Assembly: GCA_934500865.1 (NCBI GenBank)
Contig: CAKSUD010000003.1
Location: forward strand, 9,817-41,816
Direction of reading: 5' to 3'
DNA: 32,000 bases
DNA from: an uncultured Clostridia bacterium
GTDB taxonomy: Bacteria; Bacillota; Clostridia; TANB77; RGIG9151
Below the pieces are notes generated by a model. That model was given only the letters and a program-made list of their open reading frames with translations. It searched no databases and was not told where the DNA came from. Shown here piece by piece: positions 1,737-30,308 of the stretch. A program made the position numbers and the translations under genes. Each line of letters starts with the position of its first letter. The first letter of the stretch is position 1.

Positions 1737-2000
1737 ATGCATGTGGAAAAAAGAGTTGCAGTCATGGGTATTATAGTAGAAAACAAAGAAACAGTAGAAA
1801 GTTTAAATGCACTTTTGCATAATTATGCAAAATATATTATCGGGAGAATGGGGATTCCGTATAGAGAAAAAAACATAAATATAATAAGTATAGCAATTGA
1901 TGCTCCACAAGATGAAATTTCTGCATTATCCGGAAAAATCGGAAAGCTTTCTGGAATTAGTGTAAAAACTGCATATTCAAATGTAATTTCAAATGAATGA
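1737..2000 (+). CDS. TM1266-family iron-only hydrogenase system regulator (small ACT-like protein)
   Basis: 'RVAVMGIIVENKETVESLNALLHNYAKYIIGRMGIPYREKNINIISIAIDAPQDEISALSGKIGKLSGISVKTAYS' matches the family found in front of hydE/G/F. The SD AGGAGG (1730-1735) is better placed for the in-frame GTG at 1743 than for the ATG at 1737. Confidence 0.85.
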   Translation: MHVEKRVAVMGIIVENKETVESLNALLHNYAKYIIGRMGIPYREKNINIISIAIDAPQDEISALSGKIGKLSGISVKTAYSNVISNE

Positions 2001-3051
2001 TAATATAAAATATTTAATAGATTTACTTTATGAAAATAATTCTTTAAAGCTTTCCGAATACGAAAATTTAGTTAAAGGATATTCTGCAGTTACGGCAGAA
2101 TATGTGGCACAAAAGGCTGATTCTGTAAGAAAATCGATTTATGGAAATAAGGTTTATATAAGAGGATTAATTGAGATAAGTAATATTTGTAAAAATAATT
2201 GCTTATATTGCGGTATTCGTAAGGGCAATAAATTGTGTTCCCGATATAGATTAAGCAAAGAAGAAATCTTGGATTGTTGTGATGTAGGGTATAACCTAGG
2301 TTTTCGTACATTTGTTATGCAAGGTGGGGAGGATCTCTACTATACGGATGAAGTTATGTGTAAGATAATAAGAGAAATTAAACTAAGATATGATGATTGC
2401 GCCATTACCCTTTCTTTAGGTGAGAGGAGCTACGAAAGTTATAAAAATATGTTTGAGGCTGGTGCAGATAGATATTTGCTTAGACATGAGACTGCTGATC
2501 CTGAACATTATGGTAGACTACATCCAAGCGAGATGTCTTTTCAAAATAGAATGAAATGTCTTAGAGAATTAAGAGAAATTGGTTATCAAGTTGGGTGTGG
2601 ATTTATGGTAGGTTCTCCTTATCAAACATCATTAACAATTGCAAAAGACTTGAAATTTATAGAAGAGTTTAAACCGGATATGTGTGGGATAGGACCATTT
2701 ATACCACATAATGCTACACCTTTTAAATATGAGAAACCAGGTGATGTTAGGTTTACTTGTTTCCTTTTATCGATAATTAGACTTATACATCCTAATATAT
2801 TGCTACCGGCTACAACTGCACTTGGAACACTTTCTAAGAATGGGAGAGAGAAGGGAATATTGGCTGGTGGAAATGTTGTTATGCCCAACCTTTCACCTAT
2901 GTCTGTAAGAGGAAAATATGAGCTTTATAATAATAAAGCTTATACAAATTTAGAATCTGCGCAATGTAAGCGTGAGTTGGTAAAAGAAATGGAGAAAATA
3001 GGATATAGAATTGTAGTAGATCGAGGCGATATAGCAAACATTTCCTGCTAA
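1993..3051 (+). CDS. hydE: [FeFe]-hydrogenase H-cluster radical SAM maturase HydE
   Basis: Radical SAM motif 'CKNNCLYCGIRKGN', about 350 aa, biotin-synthase-like fold motifs. The start overlaps the upstream stop (ATGAATGA). It sits in the order regulator-hydE-hydG-hydF. Confidence 0.9.
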   Translation: MNDNIKYLIDLLYENNSLKLSEYENLVKGYSAVTAEYVAQKADSVRKSIYGNKVYIRGLIEISNICKNNCLYCGIRKGNKLCSRYRLSKEEILDCCDVGYNLGFRTFVMQGGEDLYYTDEVMCKIIREIKLRYDDCAITLSLGERSYESYKNMFEAGADRYLLRHETADPEHYGRLHPSEMSFQNRMKCLRELREIGYQVGCGFMVGSPYQTSLTIAKDLKFIEEFKPDMCGIGPFIPHNATPFKYEKPGDVRFTCFLLSIIRLIHPNILLPATTALGTLSKNGREKGILAGGNVVMPNLSPMSVRGKYELYNNKAYTNLESAQCKRELVKEMEKIGYRIVVDRGDIANISC

Positions 3052-3078
3052 AAAGTGAAAAAAGAAAGGGGTTTTAAA

Positions 3079-4527
3079 ATGGCTAGTTATAATCCAAAAT
3101 CATTAAAGGCGGAAGAATTCATTAATGATGCTGAAATTAATGAAACTATCGAATATGCAGAAAAAAACAAAAATAATTTGGAACTTATTAATAAAATTTT
3201 AGAAAAAGCACGTCCCAAAATAAATGGAAAAAATGTTAGATGTGAGGGGCTTACACATAAAGAGGCAGCTGTTTTACTTTGCTGTGAAATACCGGAAAAA
3301 GTTGAGGAGATGTACCGTATTGCAGAAGAAATAAAATTAGCTTTTTATGGGAATCGTATTGTAATGTTTGCACCGTTATACTTATCTAATTACTGCGTAA
3401 ATGGGTGTGTATATTGTCCATATCATTTAAAAAATAAACATATAGCAAGGAAAAAATTAACCCAAGATGAAATAAGGAATGAAGTTATTGCGTTACAAGA
3501 TATGGGACACAAGAGATTAGCTATAGAGGCGGGTGAAGATCCGGTAAATAATCCTATTGAATATATATTGGAGAGCATAAAAACTATATATAGTATAAAT
3601 CATAAAAATGGTGCTATACGTAGGGTAAATGTAAACATTGCTGCTACTACAGTAGAAAATTATAGAAAGTTGAAAAATGCCGGTATAGGCACATACATTC
3701 TGTTCCAAGAGACGTATCACAAGAATAGTTATTTGGAACTTCATCCAACTGGACCAAAACATGATTATGATTATCATACAGAAGCTATGGATAGAGCTAT
3801 GGAGGGTGGAATTGATGATGTTGGGCTAGGTGTATTATTCGGATTGGAAAAATATAAATACGAATTTGTTGGATTGATTATGCATGCAGAACATTTAGAG
3901 GCAGTGCATGGTGTTGGGCCACATACGATAAGTGTTCCAAGAATAAAACATGCCGATGATATTGACCCAAATGCTTTTGACAATTCAATTCCTGATGATG
4001 TTTTTGCTAAAATTACAGCGTGTATAAGAATAGCAGTTCCGTATACAGGAATTATAATTTCAACTAGAGAATCTGAATTGGTTCGCGGAAAACTTTTGAA
4101 GCTTGGAGTTTCACAAATAAGTGGAGCATCGCGTACATCTGTGGGTGGATACACAAACGAGGAAAGAGTGCATGATACAGAACAATTTGATGTTTCAGAT
4201 CAGAGGACGTTGGATGAAGTTGTACGTTGGCTTATGGAAAACAATCATATTCCTTCGTTTTGCACGGCTTGTTACAGAGAGGGACGAACAGGCGATAGAT
4301 TTATGAGTTTATGTAAGAATGGACAAATATTAAATTGTTGTCACCCTAATGCATTGATGACATTAACAGAGTATTTAGTAGATTATGCATCTCAAGAAAC
4401 GAGAGAGATAGGATTTAAGATGATTGAAGAGGAACTAAAGAAAATACCTAATGAAAATGTTAGAAATATTACAATGACTAATATTGAAAAAATTAAGATA
4501 TCAAGTGATAGAGATTTTCATTTCTAG
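3079..4527 (+). CDS. hydG: [FeFe]-hydrogenase H-cluster radical SAM maturase HydG
   Basis: 'CVNGCVYCPYH' radical SAM cluster plus the C-terminal auxiliary cluster motif 'CTACYREGRTGDRFMSLC'. The start at ATG 3079 (MASYNPK) follows the AAAGGGG SD; the track start at 3055 has no SD. Confidence 0.9.
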   Translation: MASYNPKSLKAEEFINDAEINETIEYAEKNKNNLELINKILEKARPKINGKNVRCEGLTHKEAAVLLCCEIPEKVEEMYRIAEEIKLAFYGNRIVMFAPLYLSNYCVNGCVYCPYHLKNKHIARKKLTQDEIRNEVIALQDMGHKRLAIEAGEDPVNNPIEYILESIKTIYSINHKNGAIRRVNVNIAATTVENYRKLKNAGIGTYILFQETYHKNSYLELHPTGPKHDYDYHTEAMDRAMEGGIDDVGLGVLFGLEKYKYEFVGLIMHAEHLEAVHGVGPHTISVPRIKHADDIDPNAFDNSIPDDVFAKITACIRIAVPYTGIIISTRESELVRGKLLKLGVSQISGASRTSVGGYTNEERVHDTEQFDVSDQRTLDEVVRWLMENNHIPSFCTACYREGRTGDRFMSLCKNGQILNCCHPNALMTLTEYLVDYASQETREIGFKMIEEELKKIPNENVRNITMTNIEKIKISSDRDFHF

Positions 4528-4540
4528 GAAGGAGAAAGAT

Positions 4541-5725
4541 ATGGGGTTAAACGATTTAGTTTCAGCAGAACGTTTGCATATTGGTTTTTTTGGCTTGCGA
4601 AATGCAGGTAAGTCAAGTGTAGTTAATGCAATAACAAATCAGAATATAGCAGTTGTTTCAAATATTCCAGGAACGACTACGGATCCGGTTAAGAAAACCA
4701 TGGAAATATTACCCATAGGACCTGTTGTAATTATAGATACACCCGGAATAGATGATGAAGGGTATTTAGGTGAGATGCGTGTTAAGAAAACGAGGCAAGT
4801 ACTAGCTAGTGTGGATGTTGCAGTATTGGTTGTCGATATAAATTTAGGGCTAGGAAAGCTTGATAAAGAATTGATTTCAGAATTTATATCTAGAAATATT
4901 CCCTATATAGTGGTGTATAATAAATGTGATACTCTTAAGACTGAGATGGATACGGATGAGAATAGTATTTATATTAGTGCATTGACTGGCGAAAATATAA
5001 ATGACTTGAGAATACGGATATCTAAAATGAAAAAGAGTGAGGATAAGGGAAAGAATATAGTATTTGATTTAATGAATAAAGATGATATTGCAATTTTGGT
5101 TACACCTATTGATTCGTCTGCTCCAAAGGGAAGACTTATTCTACCACAACAAATGGTAATAAGAGAGATAGTTGAAAATGGTGGAATTGCAATTGTGTGT
5201 CAATGTTATGAATTGGAAAATGTGTTACAGTCAATGAGTAGGAAGCCACGGATTGTTATTACTGATTCACAAGCCTTTGAAGAAGTGTCTGAAATCGTAC
5301 CAAATGACATCGCTCTTACATCATTTTCAATACTGTTTGCTAGATATAAGGCGGATCTAGAAGAATTTGTAGCAGGAGCTAAGCATCTTGAATTATTAAA
5401 TGATGGGGATAAAATATTGATTTCTGAGGGATGTACACATCATAGACAGTGTGAAGATATAGGCACGGTAAAAATTCCAAAGTGGGTTAGTAATTATACA
5501 AGTAAAAAATTGATATTTGATTTCTCTTCCGGAAATGATTTCCCTGAAGATGTGTCGAAATATGCTTTAATTATACATTGTGGAGGGTGTATGTTAAATA
5601 GAAAAGAAGTTGGGCATAGAGTAAAAATGGCGCAAGAGAATTCTGTGCCTGTAACAAATTATGGTGTTATTATTGCTTATATGAAAGGAATTCTCGGTAG
5701 GAGTGTTGCAATGTTTAAAAAATAG
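4541..5725 (+). CDS. hydF: [FeFe]-hydrogenase maturation GTPase HydF
   Basis: G1 'GLRNAGKSS', G3 'DTPG', G4 'NKCD', and C-terminal cluster ligands 'CTHHRQC ... HCGGC'. The start at 4541 (MGLNDL) follows AGGAAGGAG; the track start at 4484 overlaps the hydG end. Confidence 0.9.
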   Translation: MGLNDLVSAERLHIGFFGLRNAGKSSVVNAITNQNIAVVSNIPGTTTDPVKKTMEILPIGPVVIIDTPGIDDEGYLGEMRVKKTRQVLASVDVAVLVVDINLGLGKLDKELISEFISRNIPYIVVYNKCDTLKTEMDTDENSIYISALTGENINDLRIRISKMKKSEDKGKNIVFDLMNKDDIAILVTPIDSSAPKGRLILPQQMVIREIVENGGIAIVCQCYELENVLQSMSRKPRIVITDSQAFEEVSEIVPNDIALTSFSILFARYKADLEEFVAGAKHLELLNDGDKILISEGCTHHRQCEDIGTVKIPKWVSNYTSKKLIFDFSSGNDFPEDVSKYALIIHCGGCMLNRKEVGHRVKMAQENSVPVTNYGVIIAYMKGILGRSVAMFKK

Positions 5726-17254: not shown

Positions 17255-20200
17255 ATGAAAAATAATAAAGATAAATCGATACTTAAAATGAATAAGGACT
17301 TTTTTGCTATTTATTCTATTTATAGAAGGTTAAATGATACAAAAAATTCTAAAACCCAATTAGTACCTGCAAGTGAGTGGCTTTTGGATAATTTCTATAT
17401 AATTGAAGAACATGCAAAGCAAATAAAAAGGGATTTTAATAAGAAAATATATAGGGATTTGCCTATTGTAAGTTCCGGATATACAAGAGTTTTTACGATT
17501 GCAAGAGAAATTGTAGAAAAAAATGATGGAAAAATTGATGAGAATATTATAGAAAACTTTATAAAAAAGTATGAGGAAGTTACACCATTATATATGCGTG
17601 AAATATGGAATTTAGGTGTAACATTAAGAATATCCCTTATAGAAAAAATAAGAAAAATAAGCGAAGAAATAGTAAGAACGTATAGTAAATGGGAACAAGC
17701 AGAAAAGTGGTTAGAAGATTATAACGAAAATTCAGAATTAAGGTTACCGGGTGTTGACGATAATTATTCTTTTTATGAGCATCTTGCTTTTAAACTAAGG
17801 AGAATGGGGAAAGACGGAATCATAGTTCTAAACCGTATTGATAATTACATAGAGAAATACGGTACAAGTATTGAAGCTATTTCGAGGAAAGAGCATAGCA
17901 TTCAAGCTGAAATGAAAATTTCTATAGGAAACTCTATTCAAAGTTTAAAATATATTTCTAATATTAATTGGAATGAGCTTTTTAATAAAATAAGTGAAAT
18001 TGAAAACATTTTTAATACAGAAAAATCAGGTATTTATCCTAAAATGGATTTAGAGAGTAAAAATGCATACAGGAGCAAGGTAGAAAAAATCGCAAAAACC
18101 TTTGAGATTTCTGAATTGCATGTAGCTAAAAAATGTGTGGCATGTGCAGATGAAAATTATGATGATGAAAAAGCCGGACACGTCGGATATTATCTATTAG
18201 ATGAAGGTAAGGAGGTCCTAATAGATAATTTAGATGTGAAAGTTCCATTTTTATATAAACTAAAAAACTTTTTTGTGAAAAATCCATTCCCTATCTATTT
18301 AACAACAATGATTTTATTTGCACTTATTTCTACTGTATTATTGTATTTACTTTTTTATTTTACGACAGGGATTACAAGACTTTCTTATATCGGATTAGTA
18401 TTTGGATTTATTATTGCGTTTGATGGAGGAGTATGTTTTGCGAATTACCTATTTAGTAGAATGTTTAAGCCTAGAGTGATACCACGACTAGATTATATGG
18501 AAGGTATTCCTGAGAATTCGGCTACTATGGTTATTGTTCCTACATTACTATCAAGTAAAAAAAGAGTAAGTGATATGCTAAGTAATTTAGAAAAATATTT
18601 TGTAGCAGTATCGTCTGAAAATGTGTTTTTTACATTGGTAGGGGATGCAAAAGAGAGTGAAACAGAAGATATAGAAGAGGATGAAGAAATTGTAAAAAAA
18701 GGGATAAGTACCGTAAATAGGTTAAATGAAAAGTATGGTGCTAAAAAGTTCTTTTTTGTATATAGAAAAAGATTTTTTAATGCGTCAGAAGAAAAATGGC
18801 TTGGATGGGAAAGAAAACGTGGAGCAATACTAAAATTTAATGAATTTTTGATTGACGGCAAAAAAGAAGATTATAGATGTGTTTCGGATGGTTTTAATAC
18901 TTTGCCGAAAATAAAATATGTATTAACAGTTGATGCAGATACAATAATTCCTATAAATGAAGCCAGAAAGTTAATTGGAGCGATTTCACATCCTGTAAAT
19001 AAACCTGTATTAAATGAGGAAGAAACTGCTGTTGTTTCGGGGTACGGACTAATTCAACCACATATAGGAATAGATGTGGTAAGTGCAAACCAGAGTAAAT
19101 TCTCACAGGTATTTGCCGGAACCGGAGGAATAGACCCATATGTTTGTGCATCATCAGATATTTATCAAGATTTATTTGGGGAAGCAATCTTTACAGGAAA
19201 AGGAATTTATGATTTGGAAGTATTTCAAAAGGTTTTAAAGGATACTTTACCGGATAATGCTATTTTAAGCCATGATTTACTTGAAGGATCATATCTTAGA
19301 GCGGGGCTGGCAACAGATATTGAACTAATAGATGGTTATCCTTCTAGATATAATGCTTATGCAATGCGTGCACATAGATGGATAAGAGGCGATTGGCAGA
19401 TACTTTCTTGGATGTTTGGAAAGGTAAAAAATAGAGCGAATGAAACTATAAAAAATCCAATAAATAAAATATCAAAGTGGAAAATATTCGATAACCTAAG
19501 AAGAAGTTTAACAGCACCGTTTATGATGCTACTGATATTTTTGGCATTTTGGATATTGCCCGGAAATCCATTAATATGGACTGCTTTTGCAGTAATACTC
19601 GGAATAAGGGGAAACAAAAAACAATTTTTATATCAGTTTTTATTTCTTCCGTTCCAAGCTTGGCTTATGTTTAGTGCAATATGTATAACGCTATATAGAA
19701 TGGTTTTTATAAAGAAAAACTTATTAGAATGGGTTACAGCAGCAGATATGGAAACTAAGTTAAAAAATACTTTAGGTAGTTTTTATTTTCTTATGAAATC
19801 TAACTTAGTTCAAGGACTTGCAATTTTTTTACTTGCGTATTTCGTAAAGGGAGACAGAGTATCGATAATTACAGGGTTATTCTTATTTGCAGTTTGGACA
19901 ATTTCACCGATAATTGCATTTTATATAAGTAAACCACGTCATAATAAAAATGAAAATTTAAGTGATGATGAAAAGGAAGAACTAAAAATATTTGCAAAGA
20001 ATACTTGGAGCTATTTTGAAACATTAATGAACGCTGAAAATAATTTCCTTCCACCTGACAATTTTCAAGAAGATCCACCAAATGGGGTAGCATATAGAAC
20101 ATCTCCTACAAATATTGGATTGGGGATGCTTGCAATTTTGTCAGCTTACGATTTAGGATTTATAGATAAAAATGAGTTGATAGATAGGTTTGAAAAAATA

Positions 20201-22225
20201 TTAAATACAATTGAAAAGCTGGAGAAATGGAATGGGCATTTGCTTAATTGGTATAATACTAAAACGCTAAAGCCTTTATTTCCAAGGTATATTTCTACTG
20301 TAGATAATGGAAACTTTTTAGCTTATGCTATTACAGCTAGAGAAGGAATTAAGGAAATACTATGTGACGAGGATGAGAAAAAGAAGGAGTTTGTAGAAAA
20401 ACTTGAGCAAATAATTAAAGAAATGGATTTCTCAATTTTATATGATAAAAAGAAAAATGTATTTTCTATCGGGTATAACCTAGAAGAAGGAAGGCTTACA
20501 AATTCATATTATGATTTACTGGCTTCAGAGGCAAGGCAGACAAGTTTTTTAGCTGTTGCTCGTCATGAAGCGCCGGTAAAACATTGGTTTTCTTTAGGTA
20601 GAAGTTTAACGAAGTTAAACGGGCATAAAGGGCTGGTATCTTGGACAGGTACGATGTTTGAATATTTAATGCCACTTTTAGTTATGAAAAATTATTACAA
20701 AACTTTACTTGATGAAACGTATGATTTTGTAATAGAAAGCCAAATGATATATGCAAAAAAGAAAAATGTCGTATGGGGAATTTCCGAATCAGCATTTTAT
20801 AACTTTGATATTAATTTGAATTATCAATATAAAGCGTTAGGCGTTCCTTGGTTAGGCTTAAAAAGAGGACTTATAGATGATACTGTTATCTCACCTTATT
20901 CTACTATGCTAGCACTTATGGTAAAGCCGAAAGAGGCATATAAAAATTTAGGGGTAATGTTGGATTTTAATATGTTTGGAAAGTTTGGCTTTTATGAAGC
21001 AATTGATTTTACTCCTGGAAGGCTTAAATTTATAACAGGTGATAAGAATTATGCACAAATAAAAAGTTATATGGCACATCATCAAGGAATGAGCTTGGTT
21101 GCAATTAATAACGTAATAAATAATTTTGTTATGCAAGAAAGATTCCATAGAGATGTTTATGTAGAGTCAGCAGAGGTACTTCTGCAAGAAAAAGTTCCCG
21201 GAGATATAATTTATACTAAGGATAGTAAGGAAAAGGTTGTACCACCAAAGCAAGTTGTTTATGAGAGTATTGATACCGATCGTGAAATAGAGATAAAAGA
21301 AAATATAAGACCTGAATTTAATGTGCTTACGAATGGAAGTTATTCGGTAAGAATAAATGATAGAGGTATAGGAGTTTCCCAACTTAGCAATGTATCAATT
21401 TCAAGATATAGAAGTGATTATTTAAACGAAATATATGGGCAGGTATTTTATATAAGATGCATTAATACAGGTGAAATATGGTCACCAACATATCTCCCGT
21501 ATTTTAAGAAACCGGATAAATATATGACAGTTTTTTCAGGAGATAAAACTAAGTTTATTCGTAGAGATGGAAATATAGAAACTAATTATGAAGTGGTAGT
21601 AGCGACTGAGGATAACCTAGATATAAGGCGTATTTCAATAGTAAACCATAATGATATGGCACTAGACTTTGAAGTTACAGGATTACTTGAAATTGTTAAT
21701 GGAGACCAAAACGCAGATATTGCACACAGAGCTTTTTATGGACTATTTGTTACTACTGAACAAGAAAACGAAGTATTACTTGCAACTCGTAAACCTAGAA
21801 ATAGCAACGAAGAAAATTTTGTGGTATTTCAAACGTCTTTTGTGAATGGAGACAGTGTTGGAGATTTTCAGTTTGAAACAGACAGAATGAAGTTCTTAGG
21901 CAGAGGAAGAAGCAATAAAAACCCAAGTGCAATATTGGAAGGAAAACCTTTACTAGGAAGTGTAGGCGGAGTTTTAGACCCAATATTTGCACAAAGAAGA
22001 ATTATACGAGTAAAACCAAATGAAACAGCAAGTGTAAACTTTATTACCGGTATACAGCCGGAACGGGAAAAAGCACTGGAAACAGGTACTCGGTATAGAA
22101 AAGATGAAATGATTTCAAGAGTGTTTAGATTAGCGTATGCTAGAAATCAAGTTGAATTATCATACCTTAATGTTACTTCTGATGAAGTGAAATTTTTTGA
22201 CGATATGATAAAATATTTAGTTTAA
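17255..22225 (+). CDS. Cyclic beta-1,2-glucan synthase (Cgs/NdvB/ChvB-like), N-terminal 1656 aa: GT84 glycosyltransferase, TM segments, (alpha/alpha)6 cyclization domain and the first GH94-type beta-sandwich
   Basis: N-terminal 'SEWLLDNFYIIEEH'. GT84 motifs 'TMVIVPTLL', 'LTVDADT', 'LSHDLLEG' and 'HRWIRGDWQ'. Several TM clusters. Glucoamylase-like middle domain motifs 'YRTSPTNIGLG', 'NGHLLNWYNT', 'STVDNGNF', 'YDLLASEARQ', 'WTGTMFEYLMP', 'WGISESA', 'GFYEAIDF' and 'AHHQGMS'. Confidence 0.85.
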   Translation: MKNNKDKSILKMNKDFFAIYSIYRRLNDTKNSKTQLVPASEWLLDNFYIIEEHAKQIKRDFNKKIYRDLPIVSSGYTRVFTIAREIVEKNDGKIDENIIENFIKKYEEVTPLYMREIWNLGVTLRISLIEKIRKISEEIVRTYSKWEQAEKWLEDYNENSELRLPGVDDNYSFYEHLAFKLRRMGKDGIIVLNRIDNYIEKYGTSIEAISRKEHSIQAEMKISIGNSIQSLKYISNINWNELFNKISEIENIFNTEKSGIYPKMDLESKNAYRSKVEKIAKTFEISELHVAKKCVACADENYDDEKAGHVGYYLLDEGKEVLIDNLDVKVPFLYKLKNFFVKNPFPIYLTTMILFALISTVLLYLLFYFTTGITRLSYIGLVFGFIIAFDGGVCFANYLFSRMFKPRVIPRLDYMEGIPENSATMVIVPTLLSSKKRVSDMLSNLEKYFVAVSSENVFFTLVGDAKESETEDIEEDEEIVKKGISTVNRLNEKYGAKKFFFVYRKRFFNASEEKWLGWERKRGAILKFNEFLIDGKKEDYRCVSDGFNTLPKIKYVLTVDADTIIPINEARKLIGAISHPVNKPVLNEEETAVVSGYGLIQPHIGIDVVSANQSKFSQVFAGTGGIDPYVCASSDIYQDLFGEAIFTGKGIYDLEVFQKVLKDTLPDNAILSHDLLEGSYLRAGLATDIELIDGYPSRYNAYAMRAHRWIRGDWQILSWMFGKVKNRANETIKNPINKISKWKIFDNLRRSLTAPFMMLLIFLAFWILPGNPLIWTAFAVILGIRGNKKQFLYQFLFLPFQAWLMFSAICITLYRMVFIKKNLLEWVTAADMETKLKNTLGSFYFLMKSNLVQGLAIFLLAYFVKGDRVSIITGLFLFAVWTISPIIAFYISKPRHNKNENLSDDEKEELKIFAKNTWSYFETLMNAENNFLPPDNFQEDPPNGVAYRTSPTNIGLGMLAILSAYDLGFIDKNELIDRFEKILNTIEKLEKWNGHLLNWYNTKTLKPLFPRYISTVDNGNFLAYAITAREGIKEILCDEDEKKKEFVEKLEQIIKEMDFSILYDKKKNVFSIGYNLEEGRLTNSYYDLLASEARQTSFLAVARHEAPVKHWFSLGRSLTKLNGHKGLVSWTGTMFEYLMPLLVMKNYYKTLLDETYDFVIESQMIYAKKKNVVWGISESAFYNFDINLNYQYKALGVPWLGLKRGLIDDTVISPYSTMLALMVKPKEAYKNLGVMLDFNMFGKFGFYEAIDFTPGRLKFITGDKNYAQIKSYMAHHQGMSLVAINNVINNFVMQERFHRDVYVESAEVLLQEKVPGDIIYTKDSKEKVVPPKQVVYESIDTDREIEIKENIRPEFNVLTNGSYSVRINDRGIGVSQLSNVSISRYRSDYLNEIYGQVFYIRCINTGEIWSPTYLPYFKKPDKYMTVFSGDKTKFIRRDGNIETNYEVVVATEDNLDIRRISIVNHNDMALDFEVTGLLEIVNGDQNADIAHRAFYGLFVTTEQENEVLLATRKPRNSNEENFVVFQTSFVNGDSVGDFQFETDRMKFLGRGRSNKNPSAILEGKPLLGSVGGVLDPIFAQRRIIRVKPNETASVNFITGIQPEREKALETGTRYRKDEMISRVFRLAYARNQVELSYLNVTSDEVKFFDDMIKYLV

Positions 22226-22241: not shown

Positions 22242-24956
22242 ATGAAAAATACTAAGGGTATCCTCTGGAGTCATGGAATTTCAGGTGATTTACCGATTGT
22301 GCTTATTGTTATAAAAAAATACGAAGACTTAGATGTTATTTACGATATGATAAAAGCACACGAGTATTGGAGAACAAAGGGGATTTTTGTTGACCTTGTT
22401 ATTTTAAGTTACGAGGAAATTAGTTATAATCATCCTTTGTGGAACAGCATATTTGAAATTGTGTCCGGCAGCCATTTAGGTAACTTACAAAATGTGTCCG
22501 GTGGAGTTTTTATGTTACGAGGAGAAATTTTAGATAAACAAGATATAGAAGAACTTATCAGTATTGCTAATATTGTGTCAGAAGATGGTGGAGTTAGGTT
22601 ACCTGAAGATGTAAAAGCAGAAGAACCATATAATGATAGTTTGTTAAGAACTGGCGGAAAAAGTATAGATAAAAGAAAACTTGAGTTTTTTAATGGAATT
22701 GGTGGCTTTGATGAAAAGGCAATGGAATATGTTATATATCCCACAAAAAATGAATACACTCCCCTTCCTTGGAGCAATGTAATGTGTAATAAGGATTTTG
22801 GCTGTATAATGACAGAAGCGGGTGGCGGATATACATGGGCATTTAACAGTAGAGAATATAGGCTTACTCCTTGGAGTAATGATGCAGTTAGTGACTTACA
22901 AGGAGAATATGTATATCTTGAGGATTTAGACAGTAAAGAACGCTTTGGGGCCTATTTACTTCCTTACGAAACTAATGGAGGATATGAAGTGTCTTTTGGG
23001 CTTGGATACTGTAAATATCTATCTATAATATCCGATTTATTAATTGAGCTTACTGTTTTTGTGCCAAGAAAAGAGCTTGTAAAAATTTCTATGATAAAGA
23101 TTAGAAATCTAAGTGGCAGAAAAAGAAAGTTAAGTTTAAGGTATTATATTAATCCGGTACTTGCATTTAGTAATAATTTTAGAGAAAAAAATATAAAGAC
23201 GACAGTTGATAATGATAAAATAATTTTTGAAAATAAATACGAAAGAGAATTTTTTTATAGTAAGGTTTATTTAACAACGGGCAAAGGAAGCAATTTTTAT
23301 AAGAAAAATATTGGGGTAGAATCGTATATTAATGTTGAAATAAATGATAATGATGAACTAAATAAAGTGTTCCTTTTGGGGGCTTGTGAAAATGAAGTGA
23401 TTGCAGATAAATTTTTAGAATGGGAGAAAGCAAGTACTGAATTAGATGAAGTAAAAAAGTTTTATAAAAAAGATGTACAAAAAATAAAAGTTAACACTCC
23501 GGACAAAGCTACTAATTTATTATTAAATGGTTTTTTACTATATCAGGCACTTGTTTGCAGAATTTTTGGTAAGAGTTCATTTTATCAGTCTGGAGGAGCT
23601 ACCGGATTTAGAGACCAACTTCAAGATGTTATGCCGTTTTCGTTTATTATGCCGGAGCTTACTCGTGAGCAAATTTTATACCACGCCAGACATCAGTTTG
23701 ATGAGGGAGACGTCTTGCATTGGTGGCACAAAGAAGCTCAAAAGGGAACACGAACGAGATTTTCGGACGATTTGCTATGGTTAGTTTATGTAACTAATTA
23801 TTATATAAAAGTAACTAATGATAAAAGTATTTTAGATGAACAGGTTTCGTTTGTAGAGGGGGTAGAGCTTGAGGATTATGAGGATGAAAAATATATTGAA
23901 TTTGAATATTCTCAAAATAGCGCCTCTTTATTTGCACATTGTATTTTTTCAATTGAACATGCATTAAAATTTGGAGAACATGGACTTATATTAATGGGAT
24001 CAGGTGACTGGAACGACGGAATGAATGAGGTCGGAAATAAAGGAAAAGGTGAGAGTGTATGGCTTTCGTGGTTTTTATATAAAATACTTGTTGATTTTTC
24101 TCCCATTTGTACAGAACAAGGTAGGGCTGATTTAGCGGAAAAATATAATGAAATTGCGATAAAGTTAAAAGAACAGATCAATACTAAAGCATGGGATGGA
24201 GAATGGTATAAAAGAGCATATTTTGATGATGGAACTCCTCTTGGTTCGATAGAAAATGATGAGTGTAAAATAGATTCTATTTCACAGTCTTGGAGTGTTA
24301 TTTCCGGTGCAGGAGATGAAAATAAAAAAGAGAAGGCTATGAATTCACTGGATAATTATTTAATAGATAAAGAAAATGGAATTATAAAATTACTCACTCC
24401 TCCATTTTCAGAAGGCGAATTAAAGCCAGGATATATAAAGAGCTATTTAGAGGGAATTCGTGAAAATGGTGGTCAATATACTCATGCAGCTATTTGGGCA
24501 GGAATTGCTTATGCAATAATGAAAAAGGGAGATAAAGCATTTTCTATATTTGAAATGTTAAATCCTATTAATCATAGTAGAACAGACAGTGAAATGAAAA
24601 AATATAAGCTAGAGCCGTATGTTATTTCAGCTGACATATATACTAACCCGCTTCATATAGGGCGGGGGGGTTGGAGTTGGTATACTGGTGCAGCATCTTG
24701 GATGTATAGGTTTGGAATTGAATATATATTAGGAATAAAATTTAGAGGAAAAACGGTTATTATTGAGCCGTGTACAAGCTCTGATTGGAATGAATATACT
24801 TTGGAGTATAAAATTAAGGATACAACATACAACATTAATGTTAAGCTTAACTCCGGCAAAGAAAATAAGATTGTTATTGACAATGTGTTAGAAGAGGGAA
24901 ATAGCTTTACTATAAGTGAAGACGGAAAGTTTCATTTTATAGAGGTATATTGCTAA
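22242..24956 (+). CDS. GH94 beta-1,2-glucooligosaccharide phosphorylase-like module of the cyclic glucan synthase, encoded as a separate 904-aa ORF
   Basis: 'LWSHGISGDLPIV', 'PLPWSNVM..GGGYTWAFNSREYRLTPWSND', and catalytic (alpha/alpha)6 motifs 'GFRDQLQD', 'GSGDWNDGMN', 'RENGGQYTHAAIW' and 'GRGGWSWYTGAASW'. The ATG is 6 nt after GGAGGAG. It is in a different frame from the upstream ORF. Confidence 0.85.
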   Translation: MKNTKGILWSHGISGDLPIVLIVIKKYEDLDVIYDMIKAHEYWRTKGIFVDLVILSYEEISYNHPLWNSIFEIVSGSHLGNLQNVSGGVFMLRGEILDKQDIEELISIANIVSEDGGVRLPEDVKAEEPYNDSLLRTGGKSIDKRKLEFFNGIGGFDEKAMEYVIYPTKNEYTPLPWSNVMCNKDFGCIMTEAGGGYTWAFNSREYRLTPWSNDAVSDLQGEYVYLEDLDSKERFGAYLLPYETNGGYEVSFGLGYCKYLSIISDLLIELTVFVPRKELVKISMIKIRNLSGRKRKLSLRYYINPVLAFSNNFREKNIKTTVDNDKIIFENKYEREFFYSKVYLTTGKGSNFYKKNIGVESYINVEINDNDELNKVFLLGACENEVIADKFLEWEKASTELDEVKKFYKKDVQKIKVNTPDKATNLLLNGFLLYQALVCRIFGKSSFYQSGGATGFRDQLQDVMPFSFIMPELTREQILYHARHQFDEGDVLHWWHKEAQKGTRTRFSDDLLWLVYVTNYYIKVTNDKSILDEQVSFVEGVELEDYEDEKYIEFEYSQNSASLFAHCIFSIEHALKFGEHGLILMGSGDWNDGMNEVGNKGKGESVWLSWFLYKILVDFSPICTEQGRADLAEKYNEIAIKLKEQINTKAWDGEWYKRAYFDDGTPLGSIENDECKIDSISQSWSVISGAGDENKKEKAMNSLDNYLIDKENGIIKLLTPPFSEGELKPGYIKSYLEGIRENGGQYTHAAIWAGIAYAIMKKGDKAFSIFEMLNPINHSRTDSEMKKYKLEPYVISADIYTNPLHIGRGGWSWYTGAASWMYRFGIEYILGIKFRGKTVIIEPCTSSDWNEYTLEYKIKDTTYNINVKLNSGKENKIVIDNVLEEGNSFTISEDGKFHFIEVYC

Positions 24957-26619: not shown

Positions 26620-26625
26620 AAATTA

Positions 26626-26656
26626 TGGCTACCTAACGGTAGTCATTAATTTTTTT
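26626..26656 (+). terminator. Intrinsic terminator after the ruvX-to-DUF2007 gene string
   Basis: TGGCTACC (26626-26633) pairs with GGTAGTCA (26638-26645), including one G-U pair, followed by TTAATTTTTTT. Confidence 0.7.
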
Positions 26657-26684: not shown

Positions 26685-26717
26685 CGACACTAGCCTTCAA
26701 GTGTCGTTATTTTTTTT
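26685..26717 (+). terminator. Second tandem terminator-like hairpin upstream of agrB
   Basis: CGACACT (26685-26691) pairs with AGTGTCG (26700-26706), followed by TTATTTTTTTT. Confidence 0.55.
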
Positions 26718-26748: not shown

Positions 26749-26824
26749 ACCCATTGACTGGAAGAAAAAGCCGAGTTATTATATAAGTGTCAAAACACAA
26801 GACTGTTGTGAAGGAGTGAGTGAT

Positions 26825-27442
26825 ATGTTAGAAGAACTCGGTGAAAAAATTGGAAATGCAGTTGAGAATAATCTTGATGATATAACGCCTACTCAAAAAG
26901 AGATTATTCAATATACAGTAGTACAAGTTTTTGGAGAACTCATAAAAATGGCAATAATGTTTGCTATTGTATGGCCGTTTGGAGTAGCACATTTATTATT
27001 AATAGCGATTTTTTCCATGGCGATATATAGAGTCCCATCAGGCGGGGTACATTCTAAAAGCCATATCGCTTGCTTTGTCACAAGTATGATTTTATTTATG
27101 GGAAATGTTTTAATTTCATCATTAGTAAAAGGACCACATTTAGATATTATATATATATTAATTTTTTTGATAAATATTCCTATTATTCATTATTTTGCTC
27201 CGGCAGATACAGAAATGAAACCGGTAGTAAGCAAGAAACAAAGGTTACTACTGAAAATTATTTCTTATATATGTATGACTGGTACGATATTAATCGGAAG
27301 ATTTGCTATTAATGATATAGTTATAAGAAATATATTTATATTCGGAACATTAATTCAAAGTATAACAATGTTACCATTTATATATAAAATTCTGGGAACA
27401 AGATACGGGTACAGAGACGGGATAGTAGTTCCACAAATTTAG
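26825..27442 (+). CDS. agrB: AgrB-family accessory gene regulator B (AgrD-processing membrane cysteine endopeptidase)
   Basis: Polytopic membrane protein. 'YRVPSGGVHSKSHIACFVTS' carries the His and Cys spaced 7 residues apart, as in the AgrB catalytic pair. The ATG at 26825 is 8 nt after AAGGAG; the track start (GTG 26816) lies in the SD. Confidence 0.85.
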   Translation: MLEELGEKIGNAVENNLDDITPTQKEIIQYTVVQVFGELIKMAIMFAIVWPFGVAHLLLIAIFSMAIYRVPSGGVHSKSHIACFVTSMILFMGNVLISSLVKGPHLDIIYILIFLINIPIIHYFAPADTEMKPVVSKKQRLLLKIISYICMTGTILIGRFAINDIVIRNIFIFGTLIQSITMLPFIYKILGTRYGYRDGIVVPQI

Positions 27443-27500
27443 ATTTTTTTAGAGTGGCGCGTGCTCTAAGAATATATAAAAATTAAAGGAGGAGTTTTTT

Positions 27501-27629
27501 ATGAAAAAAATGTTATGTAAGTTAACAAACAGGGTAGCAAATGTATACGGAGGAATGACAAGTAGTGCATCTATGTTCTTATTCTTAGGACAAGTAAAAA
27601 CACCGGCTTGCTTAATTAAAAAAGACTAG
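27501..27629 (+). CDS. agrD: AgrD-like cyclic autoinducing peptide precursor (42 aa), not in the ORF track
   Basis: The ATG is 6 nt after AAAGGAGGAG and 58 nt after agrB. Translation: MKKMLCKLTNRVANVYGGMTSSASMFLFLGQVKTPACLIKKD. It has a basic/amphipathic leader, a hydrophobic core 'SSASMFLFL', and a Pro-containing charged tail 'GQVKTPACLIKKD'. Confidence 0.8.
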   Translation: MKKMLCKLTNRVANVYGGMTSSASMFLFLGQVKTPACLIKKD

Positions 27630-27698: not shown

Positions 27699-27736
27699 AA
27701 AAAAGCCTCTCGACCGGTCCTCGAGAAGCTTTTTTT
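27699..27736. terminator. Bidirectional terminator between agrD (+) and the anti-sigma gene (-)
   Basis: A-run 27699-27704. GCCTCTCGA (27705-27713) pairs with TCGAGAAGC (27721-27729) with one mismatch. T-run 27730-27736. Confidence 0.8.
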
Positions 27737-28340
27737 ACTTTAATTCATATACAAACCCATCTTTTAACTCATAGAAAATTTCAACATTGTCTTTTATTAT
27801 ACTATATCCGTTTTCTGTCTTTTTAGCATCCGGATTATTTCTTAAAAATTCTTCTTCTGGAATCTCGGTCGTAACTGAATCATTATAAGGGTTTGCTAAA
27901 TCTTGTGTTATAGGGCTAAAAGAAGAGGAACGCGTAAGGCCATCGGCGATATTATTTAATGTATTTTCCAGGGTATAATATGATGACTCTAATTCTTTTA
28001 ATGGAGATGATGATTTAATCATCATTTTACGCTCCGGAAGGGTGTCAAATTTAACTGCTGTATCATCCGTACTTTGTAAAATGTATTCTCCGGTATGTAG
28101 TTTTGGAGAAAATTCATCATTAGAACTTTTACTAAATATGTTTTTATTATTTACTACATATATAGATAAACAAAGGCAAGTTACAACAAAAACCGCTGCA
28201 CAATTTTTTATCCAATAAGGTAAGTGATAAACATTATTTTTAGAATATATATTGTTTAACGTTCTTTCCTTTAGTTCATTTGACACTGTAATATTTTTTA
28301 ATTTTTTTTCAAATTCTTTCTTTAATTCTTCTTTTTTCAT
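27735..28340 (-). CDS. Putative single-pass membrane anti-sigma factor
   Basis: It starts 17 nt after the ECF sigma gene with its own AAGAGGTGA SD. It has a short cytoplasmic N-terminus, one TM ('AAVFVVTCLCLSIYVV') and an extracytoplasmic C-terminal domain of about 135 aa with no recognisable family and no HxxxCxxC zinc motif. The call is by position and topology only. Confidence 0.55.
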   Translation of the reverse strand: MKKEELKKEFEKKLKNITVSNELKERTLNNIYSKNNVYHLPYWIKNCAAVFVVTCLCLSIYVVNNKNIFSKSSNDEFSPKLHTGEYILQSTDDTAVKFDTLPERKMMIKSSSPLKELESSYYTLENTLNNIADGLTRSSSFSPITQDLANPYNDSVTTEIPEEEFLRNNPDAKKTENGYSIIKDNVEIFYELKDGFVYELK

Positions 28341-28357: not shown

Positions 28358-28864
28358 CTATTCTTCTAAAATTATCTTTAGTTTTTCTTTAAGAATTTCT
28401 CTTGCTCTTTTCATTCGAGTTCTTACAGTGGCTTCAGGAATATTTAATACATTAGAAATTTCAATTGTCGAAAAATCTTTATAATAGTAGAGAATTAAAA
28501 CATCTTTATATTTAGTAGGTAATAGTAAAATTTCATTTAATACCATATTCGCAGTCTCATTATCTATTATACTTTCATCAAAACTCACAGTTTCTATTGG
28601 ATCATTAAAGTTTTCAATAGAAACTACTTTCTTTCTCCAAGCACTTTTTAAATAGTCTTTACATGTATTTATTGTTATTTTTATAATCCATGTTTTTTCA
28701 GAACTTTTTCCTTGAAATGAGCTAAGATATTTATTAACTTTTAAAAAAACATCTTGAAATATATCTTCGGCTGTGCTAGGATTTTGCATGTATAGTGTCG
28801 CTATGCGAAGAACATCATTACCGTAAAGCTCAATTAAGTTTTCAAGCTTTTCTTTATTATTCAT
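28358..28864 (-). CDS. ECF-type sigma-70 family RNA polymerase sigma factor
   Basis: Region 2 is 'AEDIFQDVFLKV...WIIKITINTCKDYL'. Region 4 HTH is 'YKDVLILYYYKDFSTIEISNVLNIPEATVRTRMKRAREIL'. 168 aa. Confidence 0.85.
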   Translation of the reverse strand: MNNKEKLENLIELYGNDVLRIATLYMQNPSTAEDIFQDVFLKVNKYLSSFQGKSSEKTWIIKITINTCKDYLKSAWRKKVVSIENFNDPIETVSFDESIIDNETANMVLNEILLLPTKYKDVLILYYYKDFSTIEISNVLNIPEATVRTRMKRAREILKEKLKIILEE

Positions 28865-28973: not shown

Positions 28974-30308
28974 ATGGACTATTATATTTTAACACCAATT
29001 TCATTTTTATTGAGAATTTTGGAGGCATTTTCTCAATTTAGCTTAGTTTTAGTTATTTTAGACAAAAACATTTTTAATAAGAAACATCTTTTTGGAGCAA
29101 TATTGTTTTCGGTAATTTTTGAATTAGGAAAGTCGATTTGCCCACAATATTTATCTGGATTTTTAGCCATTATATTAGGTGTTCCTTTTATATCTATATA
29201 TTTTAAAGAAAAAGTATGGAAAGTTGGGATATCTTATATAATTACCGGAATAGGTGTGGCATTTTTAGATTTTATAGTTTTACTATGTTTATCATTGATA
29301 TTTCACATTCAAAAGTTTGATGATATTGCAAATATGCCATTGTTATATAACTTAGGCTGTTTAATAATTTCCATGTCTTTATTAGGAATAAGTTATGTGA
29401 TTTATTTAGTAAAGAGAAAGCGTAATATAAAACTTGAAGCTTTACCTAAGGCTACAACAGGATTGATTAATGCAATTGCAACATTTTTATTGTTAGTACC
29501 GAACCTAGTTATGCTTTTATATTATCATGATGATAAAAATATACCACTTATAATTATAATCATAAATATTCTTGCAATTATAGCAATGTTCTTTGTAAGT
29601 ACATATAACACTAAGAAAGGCTTTGAATTAGTAACTGCTGAGCAAGAATTAGTAACTCAAAAGACGTATAATAAAACTCTACAAAATCTTGTAGATGGAC
29701 TACGTACGTTTAAACATGATTATAACAATACACTTCAAACGATGTATGGTTATATACAACTAAATAATATGACTGCACTACGAGAATTTTTTGAACAAAT
29801 ATTGGATGAGTCAAGAGCCATAACGGCATTAGATAAATTAAATCCTGATCTTTTTAAAAATCCAAGTTTGTTTGGATTAATTACTGCGAAATATGAATAT
29901 GCAAGACAAAATAATGTTAATATAAACTTTGAAATGTATGGAAAACTTGAAAATGCTAATATGCAAATATATGATTTGACAAGAACTCTTGGAATATTTT
30001 TAGATAATGCAATTGAGGCATCTGCCGGAAGCGATAAGAAAAAGGTTAACTTTATGGTATGTGAAAGAAGAGGGAAAGTAGTTATCGAAATTACTAATTC
30101 ATATTCAGAAACAGGGTTAACGATAGAAAATATAAATGATAAGGGTATGTCTTCAAAAGGAGAAAATAGAGGATTAGGTTTATATAAAGTTAAGGAAATA
30201 TTAAAGAAGTACTCTAATGTTAAGCATGAAACAACAGCGTCAAAAGGTATGTTTATGCAAAGACTTACCATAAGTAAAATAAAAGAAAATTCAAAACAAA
30301 AATGTTAG
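28974..30308 (+). CDS. AgrC-like (HPK10 family) membrane sensor histidine kinase
   Basis: About six N-terminal TM helices. H-box 'FKHDYNNTLQTMYGY', N-box 'IFLDNAIEAS', G-box 'NRGLGLYKV'. The ATG is 6 nt after GGAGGG. Confidence 0.8.
   Translation: MDYYILTPISFLLRILEAFSQFSLVLVILDKNIFNKKHLFGAILFSVIFELGKSICPQYLSGFLAIILGVPFISIYFKEKVWKVGISYIITGIGVAFLDFIVLLCLSLIFHIQKFDDIANMPLLYNLGCLIISMSLLGISYVIYLVKRKRNIKLEALPKATTGLINAIATFLLLVPNLVMLLYYHDDKNIPLIIIIINILAIIAMFFVSTYNTKKGFELVTAEQELVTQKTYNKTLQNLVDGLRTFKHDYNNTLQTMYGYIQLNNMTALREFFEQILDESRAITALDKLNPDLFKNPSLFGLITAKYEYARQNNVNINFEMYGKLENANMQIYDLTRTLGIFLDNAIEASAGSDKKKVNFMVCERRGKVVIEITNSYSETGLTIENINDKGMSSKGENRGLGLYKVKEILKKYSNVKHETTASKGMFMQRLTISKIKENSKQKC

Follow-up and report, generated by a model that had tools for sequence, protein, structure and literature searches.

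A serine in place of the ring cysteine in an AgrD-type precursor of uncultured gut Clostridia, and its predicted six-residue lactone

Results

The agrBD locus

We examined a 32,000-nucleotide stretch of DNA (hereafter the window) from an uncultured Clostridia bacterium (GenBank assembly GCA_934500865.1, contig CAKSUD010000003.1, positions 9,817 to 41,816 of the forward strand), and in it a small open reading frame (ORF) that lies directly behind an agrB gene and resembles agrD, the gene for the precursor of an autoinducing peptide (AIP). The ORF occupies positions 27501-27629 on the plus strand, starts with ATG at 27501 and encodes 42 amino acids, MKKMLCKLTNRVANVYGGMTSSASMFLFLGQVKTPACLIKKD. 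A Shine-Dalgarno sequence, AGGAGG at 27487-27492 (plus strand), can be read directly 8 nucleotides before the ATG and is kept in all related loci, and a spacer of 58 nucleotides separates the ORF from the agrB stop codon, which ends at 27442. An earlier note on this DNA, made from its letters alone, had described a 42-residue ORF with a strong Shine-Dalgarno sequence 58 nucleotides after agrB and with Cys6 and Cys37 as its only cysteines, and direct reading bears out both statements. Its description of the ORF as unannotated holds in the sense that no source names the peptide, and fails in that gene calls in NCBI, ENA and Logan assemblies include the exact peptide. Among the papers searched, none has the peptide sequence.

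The precursor can be divided into three parts. Codons 1-23 (27501-27569) encode a leader that ends in an invariant alanine, Ala23, and whose residues 2-17 have a helical hydrophobic moment of 0.47, a value matched by 5.6% of shuffled sequences (2-4% for other family members). Codons 24-29 (27570-27587) encode the predicted core, S-M-F-L-F-L, with Ser24 (codon TCT, 27570-27572) as the predicted ring nucleophile and Leu29 as the predicted acyl donor. Codons 30-42 and the stop (27588-27629) encode a follower, GQVKTPACLIKKD, which is the predicted recognition tail for AgrB and whose net charge is basic, not acidic.

The agrB gene (26825-27442, plus strand; Pfam PF04647, 7.1e-31) encodes a membrane peptidase/cyclase of 205 amino acids. 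The ORF list places its start at a GTG at 26816; the homologues are 205 amino acids long, which makes the ATG at 26825 its most likely start. The motif GGVH76-x6-C83, together with R69, is invariant in an alignment of 12 sequences, and the spacing of His76 and Cys83 is the same as that of His77 and Cys84 in Staphylococcus aureus AgrB, a catalytic dyad that forms an acyl-enzyme which is then resolved by an internal nucleophile (PMC10482373). A search of PDB sequences with the window AgrB returned no relative.

Several signals surround the two genes. Upstream of agrB, a consensus scan found a promoter-like site, TTGACT-17-TATTAT (26754-26782, plus strand), with 10 of 12 matches, a pattern match only. 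An intrinsic terminator (27699-27735, plus strand) follows agrD, was found both by a terminator scan and as a predicted fold, and is shared with the convergent gene. Given this promoter-like site before agrB and the strong terminator after agrD, agrBD looks like one bicistronic unit. Two further terminator-like hairpins stand in tandem just before the promoter-like site, between the preceding gene and agrBD (26625-26656 and 26685-26716, plus strand; about 90 nucleotides in all); the second was scored as a terminator on the minus strand as well. Across the region, the scan found five terminators where 0.6 would be expected.

The spacer between the agrB stop codon and the agrD Shine-Dalgarno sequence contains a predicted hairpin (27446-27472, plus strand) with GCGCG in its loop, a G+C island in very A+T-rich DNA. 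It is present in 10 of 11 family loci (the window, L001-L003, L005, L007, L009, L010, L012 and L017) and missing in L004. Its stems vary on both arms (AGAGUG/UGCUCU, AAGUG/CACUU, AAGUA/UACUU, AGAGU/ACUCU and GGGU/ACCC) around a constant GCGCG loop. RNAalifold predicted no pairs on the spacer alignment, in which the hairpin arms are out of register, and no run of T follows the hairpin. The element may be a site of mRNA processing or stability that uncouples agrD expression from that of agrB, or a protein-binding palindrome. Neither an Rfam scan nor a tRNA scan of the window gave a match.

The pair of genes recurs elsewhere. In related loci, whose AgrB proteins are 37-93% identical to that of the window, a homologous peptide gene with its own Shine-Dalgarno sequence follows agrB in every locus read downstream, at a distance of 30-70 nucleotides; the peptides have 42 amino acids in the family and in one sister clade and 38 in the other. 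The organism is represented by metagenome-assembled genomes (MAGs) of uncultured Clostridia or Eubacteriales, one of them from deer rectum. The agrBD pair was found in at least four neighborhoods: between IreB and an extracytoplasmic function (ECF) sigma factor, a kinase and ldhA; in rplM-rpsI-agrBD-murC/spoVG; in flagellin-kinase-agrBD-sodC; and in rluD-like-agrBD-agrCA. The variety of these settings indicates that the pair travels as a unit.

A search of 5.8 billion clustered proteins gave 15 clusters of peptides of 39-42 amino acids that are 74-95% identical to the window peptide. A profile search of 1.84 billion representatives found three true relatives only, with no bridge to canonical AgrDs, and a metagenome scan with the AgrB alignment added 2 loci only. 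The family profile also matched one other protein, P0018 (246 amino acids, from the representative library), which carries ten tandem GQVNT[S/P]ACPI repeats that resemble the follower motif GQVKTPAC; the rest of it is Cys/His-rich and of low complexity, and we took the likeness for chance.

Conservation and selection in the peptide family

Pooling all sources gave a family set of 53 distinct 42-residue peptides. Thirteen positions never vary: M1, K2, K3, N10, Y16, A23, S24, G30, Q31, K33, P35, L38 and K40. Entropy is highest at positions 25-29 (2.47, 1.73, 1.31, 2.01 and 1.90 bits), with 6 residue types at position 29 and 7 at position 25, the most variable of all. There are 37 different hexamers at positions 24-29, each of which begins with Ser and continues with hydrophobic residues. 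The earlier note had named, as one finding that would refute its reading, relatives that all carry Cys at position 24; all 53 peptides have Ser there, and the reading survives this check. Its codon is either TCT or TCA, so the serine has been maintained through synonymous change.

The cysteines of the peptide are less constant than this serine. Cys6 is replaced by Ser in 5 of the 53 peptides. Cys37 is present in 50 of 53; among all relatives, Ser takes its place in P0017, in the L007 peptide and in the 40-residue P0019, and Phe in P0139. Both are thus replaceable, and they are neither essential nor the ring residue; Cys6 was rejected as a ring candidate on this ground. We also rejected position 25, the column of the nucleophile in canonical five-membered rings: the window peptide has Met there, and no position in the family varies more.

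Comparison of ten loci shows that the agrD ORF is under purifying selection. The proportion of synonymous differences (pS) is near saturation at 0.65 and that of nonsynonymous differences (pN) is 0.18, for an overall pN/pS of 0.28. By part, pN/pS is 0.28 in the leader and 0.17 in the tail, and 0.61 at residues 25-29, a value that denotes relaxed or diversifying constraint relative to the flanks only and is not formal positive selection. Conservation and pN/pS together rule out a chance ORF, and the ORF is a real gene coupled to agrB. Read from the alignment, a fixed Ser24 followed by hypervariable residues 25-29, set between conserved processing signals, is the signature of an AIP core.

Sister clades and the register of the ring

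The nearest outgroup AgrBs, 37-39% identical to the window AgrB, are followed by two types of peptide. Both types are the nearest sequence relatives of the family, both come from gut metagenomes, and both share with it a follower of the form ...P-x-[SC]-L-I-K-K-D and an x-A-[C/S] junction. In the first type (loci L015 and L018) the peptides read MLKLLAKVAEKYAKATNSAC[AFGFW/AAWFW]HQPKMP[T/I]SLIKKD and score 37.2 and 31.9 bits on NCBIfam TIGR04223, the model for the AgrD family cyclic lactone autoinducer peptide. Unlike the window family, they have kept the cysteine: in their motif, NSAC-x5-HQPKMP.SLIKKD, Cys stands in the column of Ser24 with six-residue spacing.

The second type (agrD at L014:4662-4790, L016:2822-2950 and L019:808-936) ends in ...SASSSSYIVLIL-HQPKMPKSLIKKDEE, with …RSASSSSYIV[L/V]ILHQPKMPKSLIKKDEE as the fuller form; the L014 peptide scores 23.5 bits on TIGR04223. 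It differs from the window family in its run of four serines, in its spacing and in an adjacent LytTR regulator gene. These AgrDs can also be written MIERLAKAAENCAKRSASSSSYIV[L/V]ILHQPKMPKSLIKKDEE, a form in which the absence of a core Cys and the run of four serines are plain to see. If the last of these serines were the nucleophile, the ring would have seven residues. Since this core also has no Cys, loss of the ring cysteine seems to be recurrent in this part of the AgrB tree. The position of Cys37 is Ser in both sister clades, and by alignment Cys37 is the homologue of a follower Ser.

Of 25 family members, 14 match TIGR04223. With 22.0 bits, P0007, which shares 83% identity with the window peptide, exceeds the curated cut-off of 19, and the other matching members score 14-19 bits. 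We used the positions of this profile as a common ruler. The reference AgrD sequence of Clostridium acetobutylicum CA_C0079 was taken from the supplement of PMC10301443; four of the other reference AgrDs were confirmed as strong TIGR04223 matches, and the rest served only in the hhalign reference alignment. Family residues 3-40 map to profile positions 1-38 without a gap, which places Ser24 at position 22, Gly30 at 28 and Pro35 at 33. In CA_C0079, ring Cys33 likewise falls at 22 and Pro44 at 33, and the distance from Ser24 to Pro35 (11) equals that from Cys33 to Pro44. AgrDs with five-membered rings (S. aureus-I, C. perfringens, C. difficile and L. monocytogenes) have the ring Cys at 23 and the Pro at 33. 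The AIP of C. acetobutylicum has been detected as a six-membered, tail-free macrocycle (PMC8251862).

Two further alignments lead to the same register. With hhalign, the family aligned to canonical AgrDs with an E of 1.8e-4 and a probability of 49%, pairing Ser24 with Thr27, Leu29 with Met32, Gly30 with Asp33 and Pro35 with Pro38 of S. aureus AgrD-I. MAFFT put Ser24 of the window and Cys20 of the L015 peptide in one column and aligned GQVKTPACLIKKD with HQPKMPTSLIKKD. G30-Q31 stands opposite the residues with which the follower begins (H-Q, Y-E, D-E). The three independent alignments agree in setting Ser24 in the ring-Cys column of AgrDs with six-membered rings. Because it shares that column with the Cys of a sister clade and of C. 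acetobutylicum, Ser24 is homologous in position to the ring Cys found in a lineage of six-ring AgrDs. Sequence comparison thereby settles the register for Ser24, Gly30 and Pro35.

Predicted product and alternative readings

The ORF product is very probably a genuine AgrD-type precursor. We also consider probable, taken as a whole, the account in which the ORF at 27501-27629 serves as agrD, stands second in a bicistronic agrBD unit of an uncultured lineage of spore-forming gut Clostridia, and yields the product described below. The earlier note had proposed a precursor with Ser at the ring position instead of Cys, and the homology of Ser24 with the ring Cys of a sister clade and of C. acetobutylicum upholds that proposal. 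The six-membered SMFLFL ring, which the note had listed as the option that keeps the Pro spacing, is the one favored by the Ser24-Pro35 register. Judged from the sequences, the most likely product is a tail-free six-residue lactone, S-M-F-L-F-L, with a calculated [M+H]+ of 739.3847; a ring running specifically from Ser24 to Leu29 is the outcome we lean toward, with ample room for doubt.

By homology, AgrB, with His76 and Cys83 as its dyad, would recognize the basic follower and cut between Leu29 and Gly30, leaving an acyl-enzyme at Leu29. The hydroxyl of the invariant Ser24 would then attack this acyl-enzyme to close the lactone ring Ser-Met-Phe-Leu-Phe-Leu, and removal of the leader, probably after Ala23, would release a tail-free ring. 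The S21-x-A23/S24 junction resembles the A24/S25 junction of Hungateiclostridium (Clostridium) thermocellum, and the clostridial AIPs detected so far have no N-terminal tail (PMC5322536, PMC8251862); on both counts the mature peptide is probably tail-free. Such a lactone may slowly turn into a homodetic cyclo-hexapeptide by an O-to-N acyl shift. Rc-AIP1, a tail-free thiolactone, rearranges into a lactam with a half-life of 5.4 min (PMC8251862). A tail-free Listeria AIP analogue with a lactone ring persists for many hours; after 22 h at pH 7, 36% of it was hydrolyzed and 48% O-to-N shifted (PMC11297923).

Other rings can be drawn on the same peptide. For a five-membered Ser24-Phe28 lactone (SMFLF), the AgrB cut would fall after Phe28 and before Leu29, on the pattern of the classical AIP with five ring residues, which is by far the commonest type (PMC10301443), and the sole Ser-lactone so far detected in Clostridia, that of H. 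thermocellum, is a pentapeptide (PMC5322536). However, position 29 is as variable as the ring positions, and invariance begins at G30-Q31. All three alignments set G30 opposite the first follower residue (D33 in S. aureus, H or Y in clostridia) and P35 six residues into the follower, and a five-residue ring would make that follower one residue longer than in every reference. We therefore regard the SMFLF option, also put forward in the earlier note, as improbable. A larger ring, running from Ser21 or Ser22 to Leu29 (nine or eight residues) with Ser24 as a mere ring member, would resemble GBAP of Enterococcus faecalis, a Ser3-Met11 lactone of nine ring residues (PMC7028047), and Ser21 is present in 52 of the 53 peptides. 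Yet Ser21 is Arg in P0008, position 22 alternates between Ser and Asn, residues 20-23 lack the hypervariability of an AIP ring, and the sister-clade Cys, like that of C. acetobutylicum, falls opposite Ser24 and not opposite Ser21 or Ser22, all of which makes such a ring decidedly improbable. The C-terminal CLIKK thiolactone of the earlier note, closed through Cys37 with removal of Asp42 alone, draws on the only Cys near the C-terminus. We consider it effectively excluded, given the Ser or Phe at this position in some relatives and the Ser in both sister clades, the place of Cys37 behind the conserved Pro and within the follower that AgrB removes, and the near invariance of residues 38-41, which are the opposite of hypervariable.

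Two alternatives dispense with a ring ester or with AgrD itself. Water might resolve the acyl-enzyme and leave a linear peptide, or a free alpha-amine might do so after early removal of the leader and close a head-to-tail lactam; this second path is route ii of Molloy et al., who held it conceivable for clostridial cyclopeptides (PMC8251862), and the failure of S. aureus AgrB to handle Ser substrates (PMC10482373) speaks for either. But route ii would allow any residue at position 24, which is instead always a Ser, encoded by TCT or TCA and homologous to a nucleophilic Cys, and linear AIP analogues were inactive in the systems tested (PMC5322536, PMC10482373), so we rate a product with no side-chain ester as unlikely. 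That the ORF is not agrD at all, being some unrelated small peptide or a chance ORF after agrB, could be argued from the lack of a Pfam AgrD or TIGR04223 match for the window peptide. This is very hard to reconcile with its strict linkage to agrB across different genomic contexts, the purifying selection on the ORF, the TIGR04223 and hhalign matches of the family and a follower homologous to those of bona fide AgrDs, and we give it only the slightest weight.

Several observations do weigh against a Ser24-Leu29 lactone made and read by an agr system. With a threshold as loose as E<=10, the window peptide still has no match among the Pfam and NCBIfam models, and the Pfam AgrD model matches no family member. 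Both AgrB1 and AgrB2 of S. aureus fail to process a Ser-containing AgrD (PMC10482373), so the use of Ser cannot be taken for granted in any given AgrB and would have to be a property of this AgrB clade. The near invariance of Ser21 may leave room for a larger ring, the invariance of Ser24 could stem in part from the needs of a leader peptidase (as the P1' residue after Ala23) instead of a role as nucleophile, and the pN/pS of the ring, as said, stands out only relative to its flanks. On the receiving side, the window ORFs scanned contain no Response_reg or LytTR match, and tblastn with the LytTR regulator of a sister clade gave no match in either the window or the family loci examined.

The candidate receptor and other genes in the window

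An AgrC-like sensor histidine kinase is encoded downstream at 28974-30308 (plus strand), with matches to HATPase_c_5 (7e-17), to SPOB_a and, below the equivalog cut-off, to the AgrC model NF046015 (4.7e-35). A kinase of this kind is linked to agrBD in three different arrangements. Between the window and L001, the sensor half is 69-88% identical and the kinase half 92-100%, and the window kinase is 32% identical to that of a sister clade's complete agr locus. From its sequence and linkage, this kinase is the probable receptor of the AgrD-derived signal, which would pass to a response regulator encoded outside the window. L002 has the same SMFLFL ring with a kinase only 79% identical, so in these few loci the ring sequence does not simply track kinase similarity. 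The sister-clade loci L014, L016 and L019, unlike the family loci, have a kinase and LytTR pair.

Between agrD and the kinase lie two genes on the minus strand, for a convergent ECF sigma factor (27735-28340) and a single-pass anti-sigma-like protein (28358-28864). We considered this pair as a part of the agr system and rejected it: L005 and L007 lack both genes and have the kinase directly beside agrBD. Compared with L001, the anti-sigma-like protein is 57% identical, the sigma factor 90% and the flanking IreB and LdhA 98%, so the outer part of the anti-sigma-like protein is evolving fast.

Elsewhere in the window, two ORFs 16 nucleotides apart (17255-22225 and 22242-24956, plus strand; 1656 and 904 amino acids) encode proteins like GH94/cyclic beta-1,2-glucan synthase, with GH94 domains in each; they represent either two genuine neighboring genes or one gene that has been split. 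Three consecutive genes (1993-5725, plus strand) resemble those for the [FeFe]-hydrogenase maturases HydE (radical SAM), HydG (radical SAM and BATS) and HydF (a GTPase with HydF domains).

Discussion

The agrBD locus described here belongs to a subfamily in uncultured gut Clostridia that comprises at least 53 distinct peptides with 37 predicted ring sequences. The Pfam AgrD model misses all of these peptides and the NCBI model most of them, and they go without a name in public sources. The register yields a concrete candidate product, cyclo-depsi(SMFLFL), with a ring from Ser24 to Leu29 and a cut before Gly30. The earlier note overstated the novelty of such a peptide: the literature already has a Ser-lactone AIP from Clostridia (PMC5322536) as well as clostridial AIPs with six-membered rings (PMC8251862, PMC10301443), and large-scale mining of gut AIPs already assumes a Cys or a Ser nucleophile. 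Ser lactones and six-membered rings are each uncommon and each known separately, and the family is a new subfamily within a known type. What is new is the clade-wide invariant Ser at the six-ring register, the basic follower that begins with GQ and the extent to which curated models overlook the family.

With precedents published for both unusual features, the general picture of agr signaling is unchanged. The subfamily may be of use as a natural test case, both for the acceptance of Ser by AgrB enzymes and for the fate of a tail-free Ser-lactone signal. By analogy with the chemistry of the known tail-free peptides, one could speculate that the replacement of Cys by Ser in this clade is an adaptation that governs how long the signal lasts, the product being either a long-lived six-residue depsipeptide or a slowly maturing homodetic cyclo-hexapeptide. 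We think this rather doubtful as it stands; if it were true, either outcome would answer the question of Molloy et al. on the fate of a tail-free Ser-lactone AIP.

In ring size and register, the nearest parallels are CA_C0079 of C. acetobutylicum and Rc-AIP1 (CWFWSY) of Ruminiclostridium cellulolyticum, which are also six-membered and tail-free, with a hydrophobic core and an x-[EQ]-x-K-x-P follower; six-membered rings have been published for these two species and for a group of solventogenic clostridia (PMC8251862, PMC10301443). The register is identical to that of the C. acetobutylicum type, with the nucleophile at profile position 22, the start of the follower at 28 and Pro at 33. These systems use Cys, where the window family has Ser without exception. 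They also have agrCA beside agrBD and often a LanM-like effector gene downstream; neither arrangement was found in the window, and no lanthipeptide-synthetase-like domain of the LanM-like CA_C0082 type occurs among the window ORFs scanned.

A serine lactone made by an AgrB homologue is known from E. faecalis FsrD/GBAP (PMC7028047). Unlike the product predicted here, GBAP has a nine-residue ring, Ser3-Met11, and a two-residue tail, and fsrD is in frame with fsrB. The FsrD follower opens with GQ and carries a Pro at +6, in which it resembles GQVKTP of the window peptide, a likeness that would speak for a larger, GBAP-like ring; an FsrD sequence gave no TIGR04223 match.

The orphan AgrD of H. thermocellum, Clo1313_2818, yields a tail-free Ser-lactone AIP (PMC5322536) and is among the closest known systems. 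It comes from the same class, Clostridia; its cyclizing Ser directly follows an Ala (A24/S25 there, A23/S24 here); its follower has a Pro at position 35; and its product too is predicted to be tail-free. The ring, compared here by description only, is a pentapeptide from S25 to F29, and its Ser lies 10 residues before the Pro, whereas that of the window lies 11 before it and is predicted to close a six-residue ring. That agrD has no adjacent agrB, while agrD of the window family always follows one.

The AIPs of S. intermedius and S. pseudintermedius likewise have Ser at the ring position and are functional autoinducers as lactones (PMC10482373). In contrast to the peptides of the window family, their ring has five residues and bears an exocyclic tail, their follower is acidic, and their genes form a full agrBDCA operon. 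There the Ser appears as a species-level switch, whereas in the window family it is fixed across a clade whose AgrB proteins are 52-100% identical.

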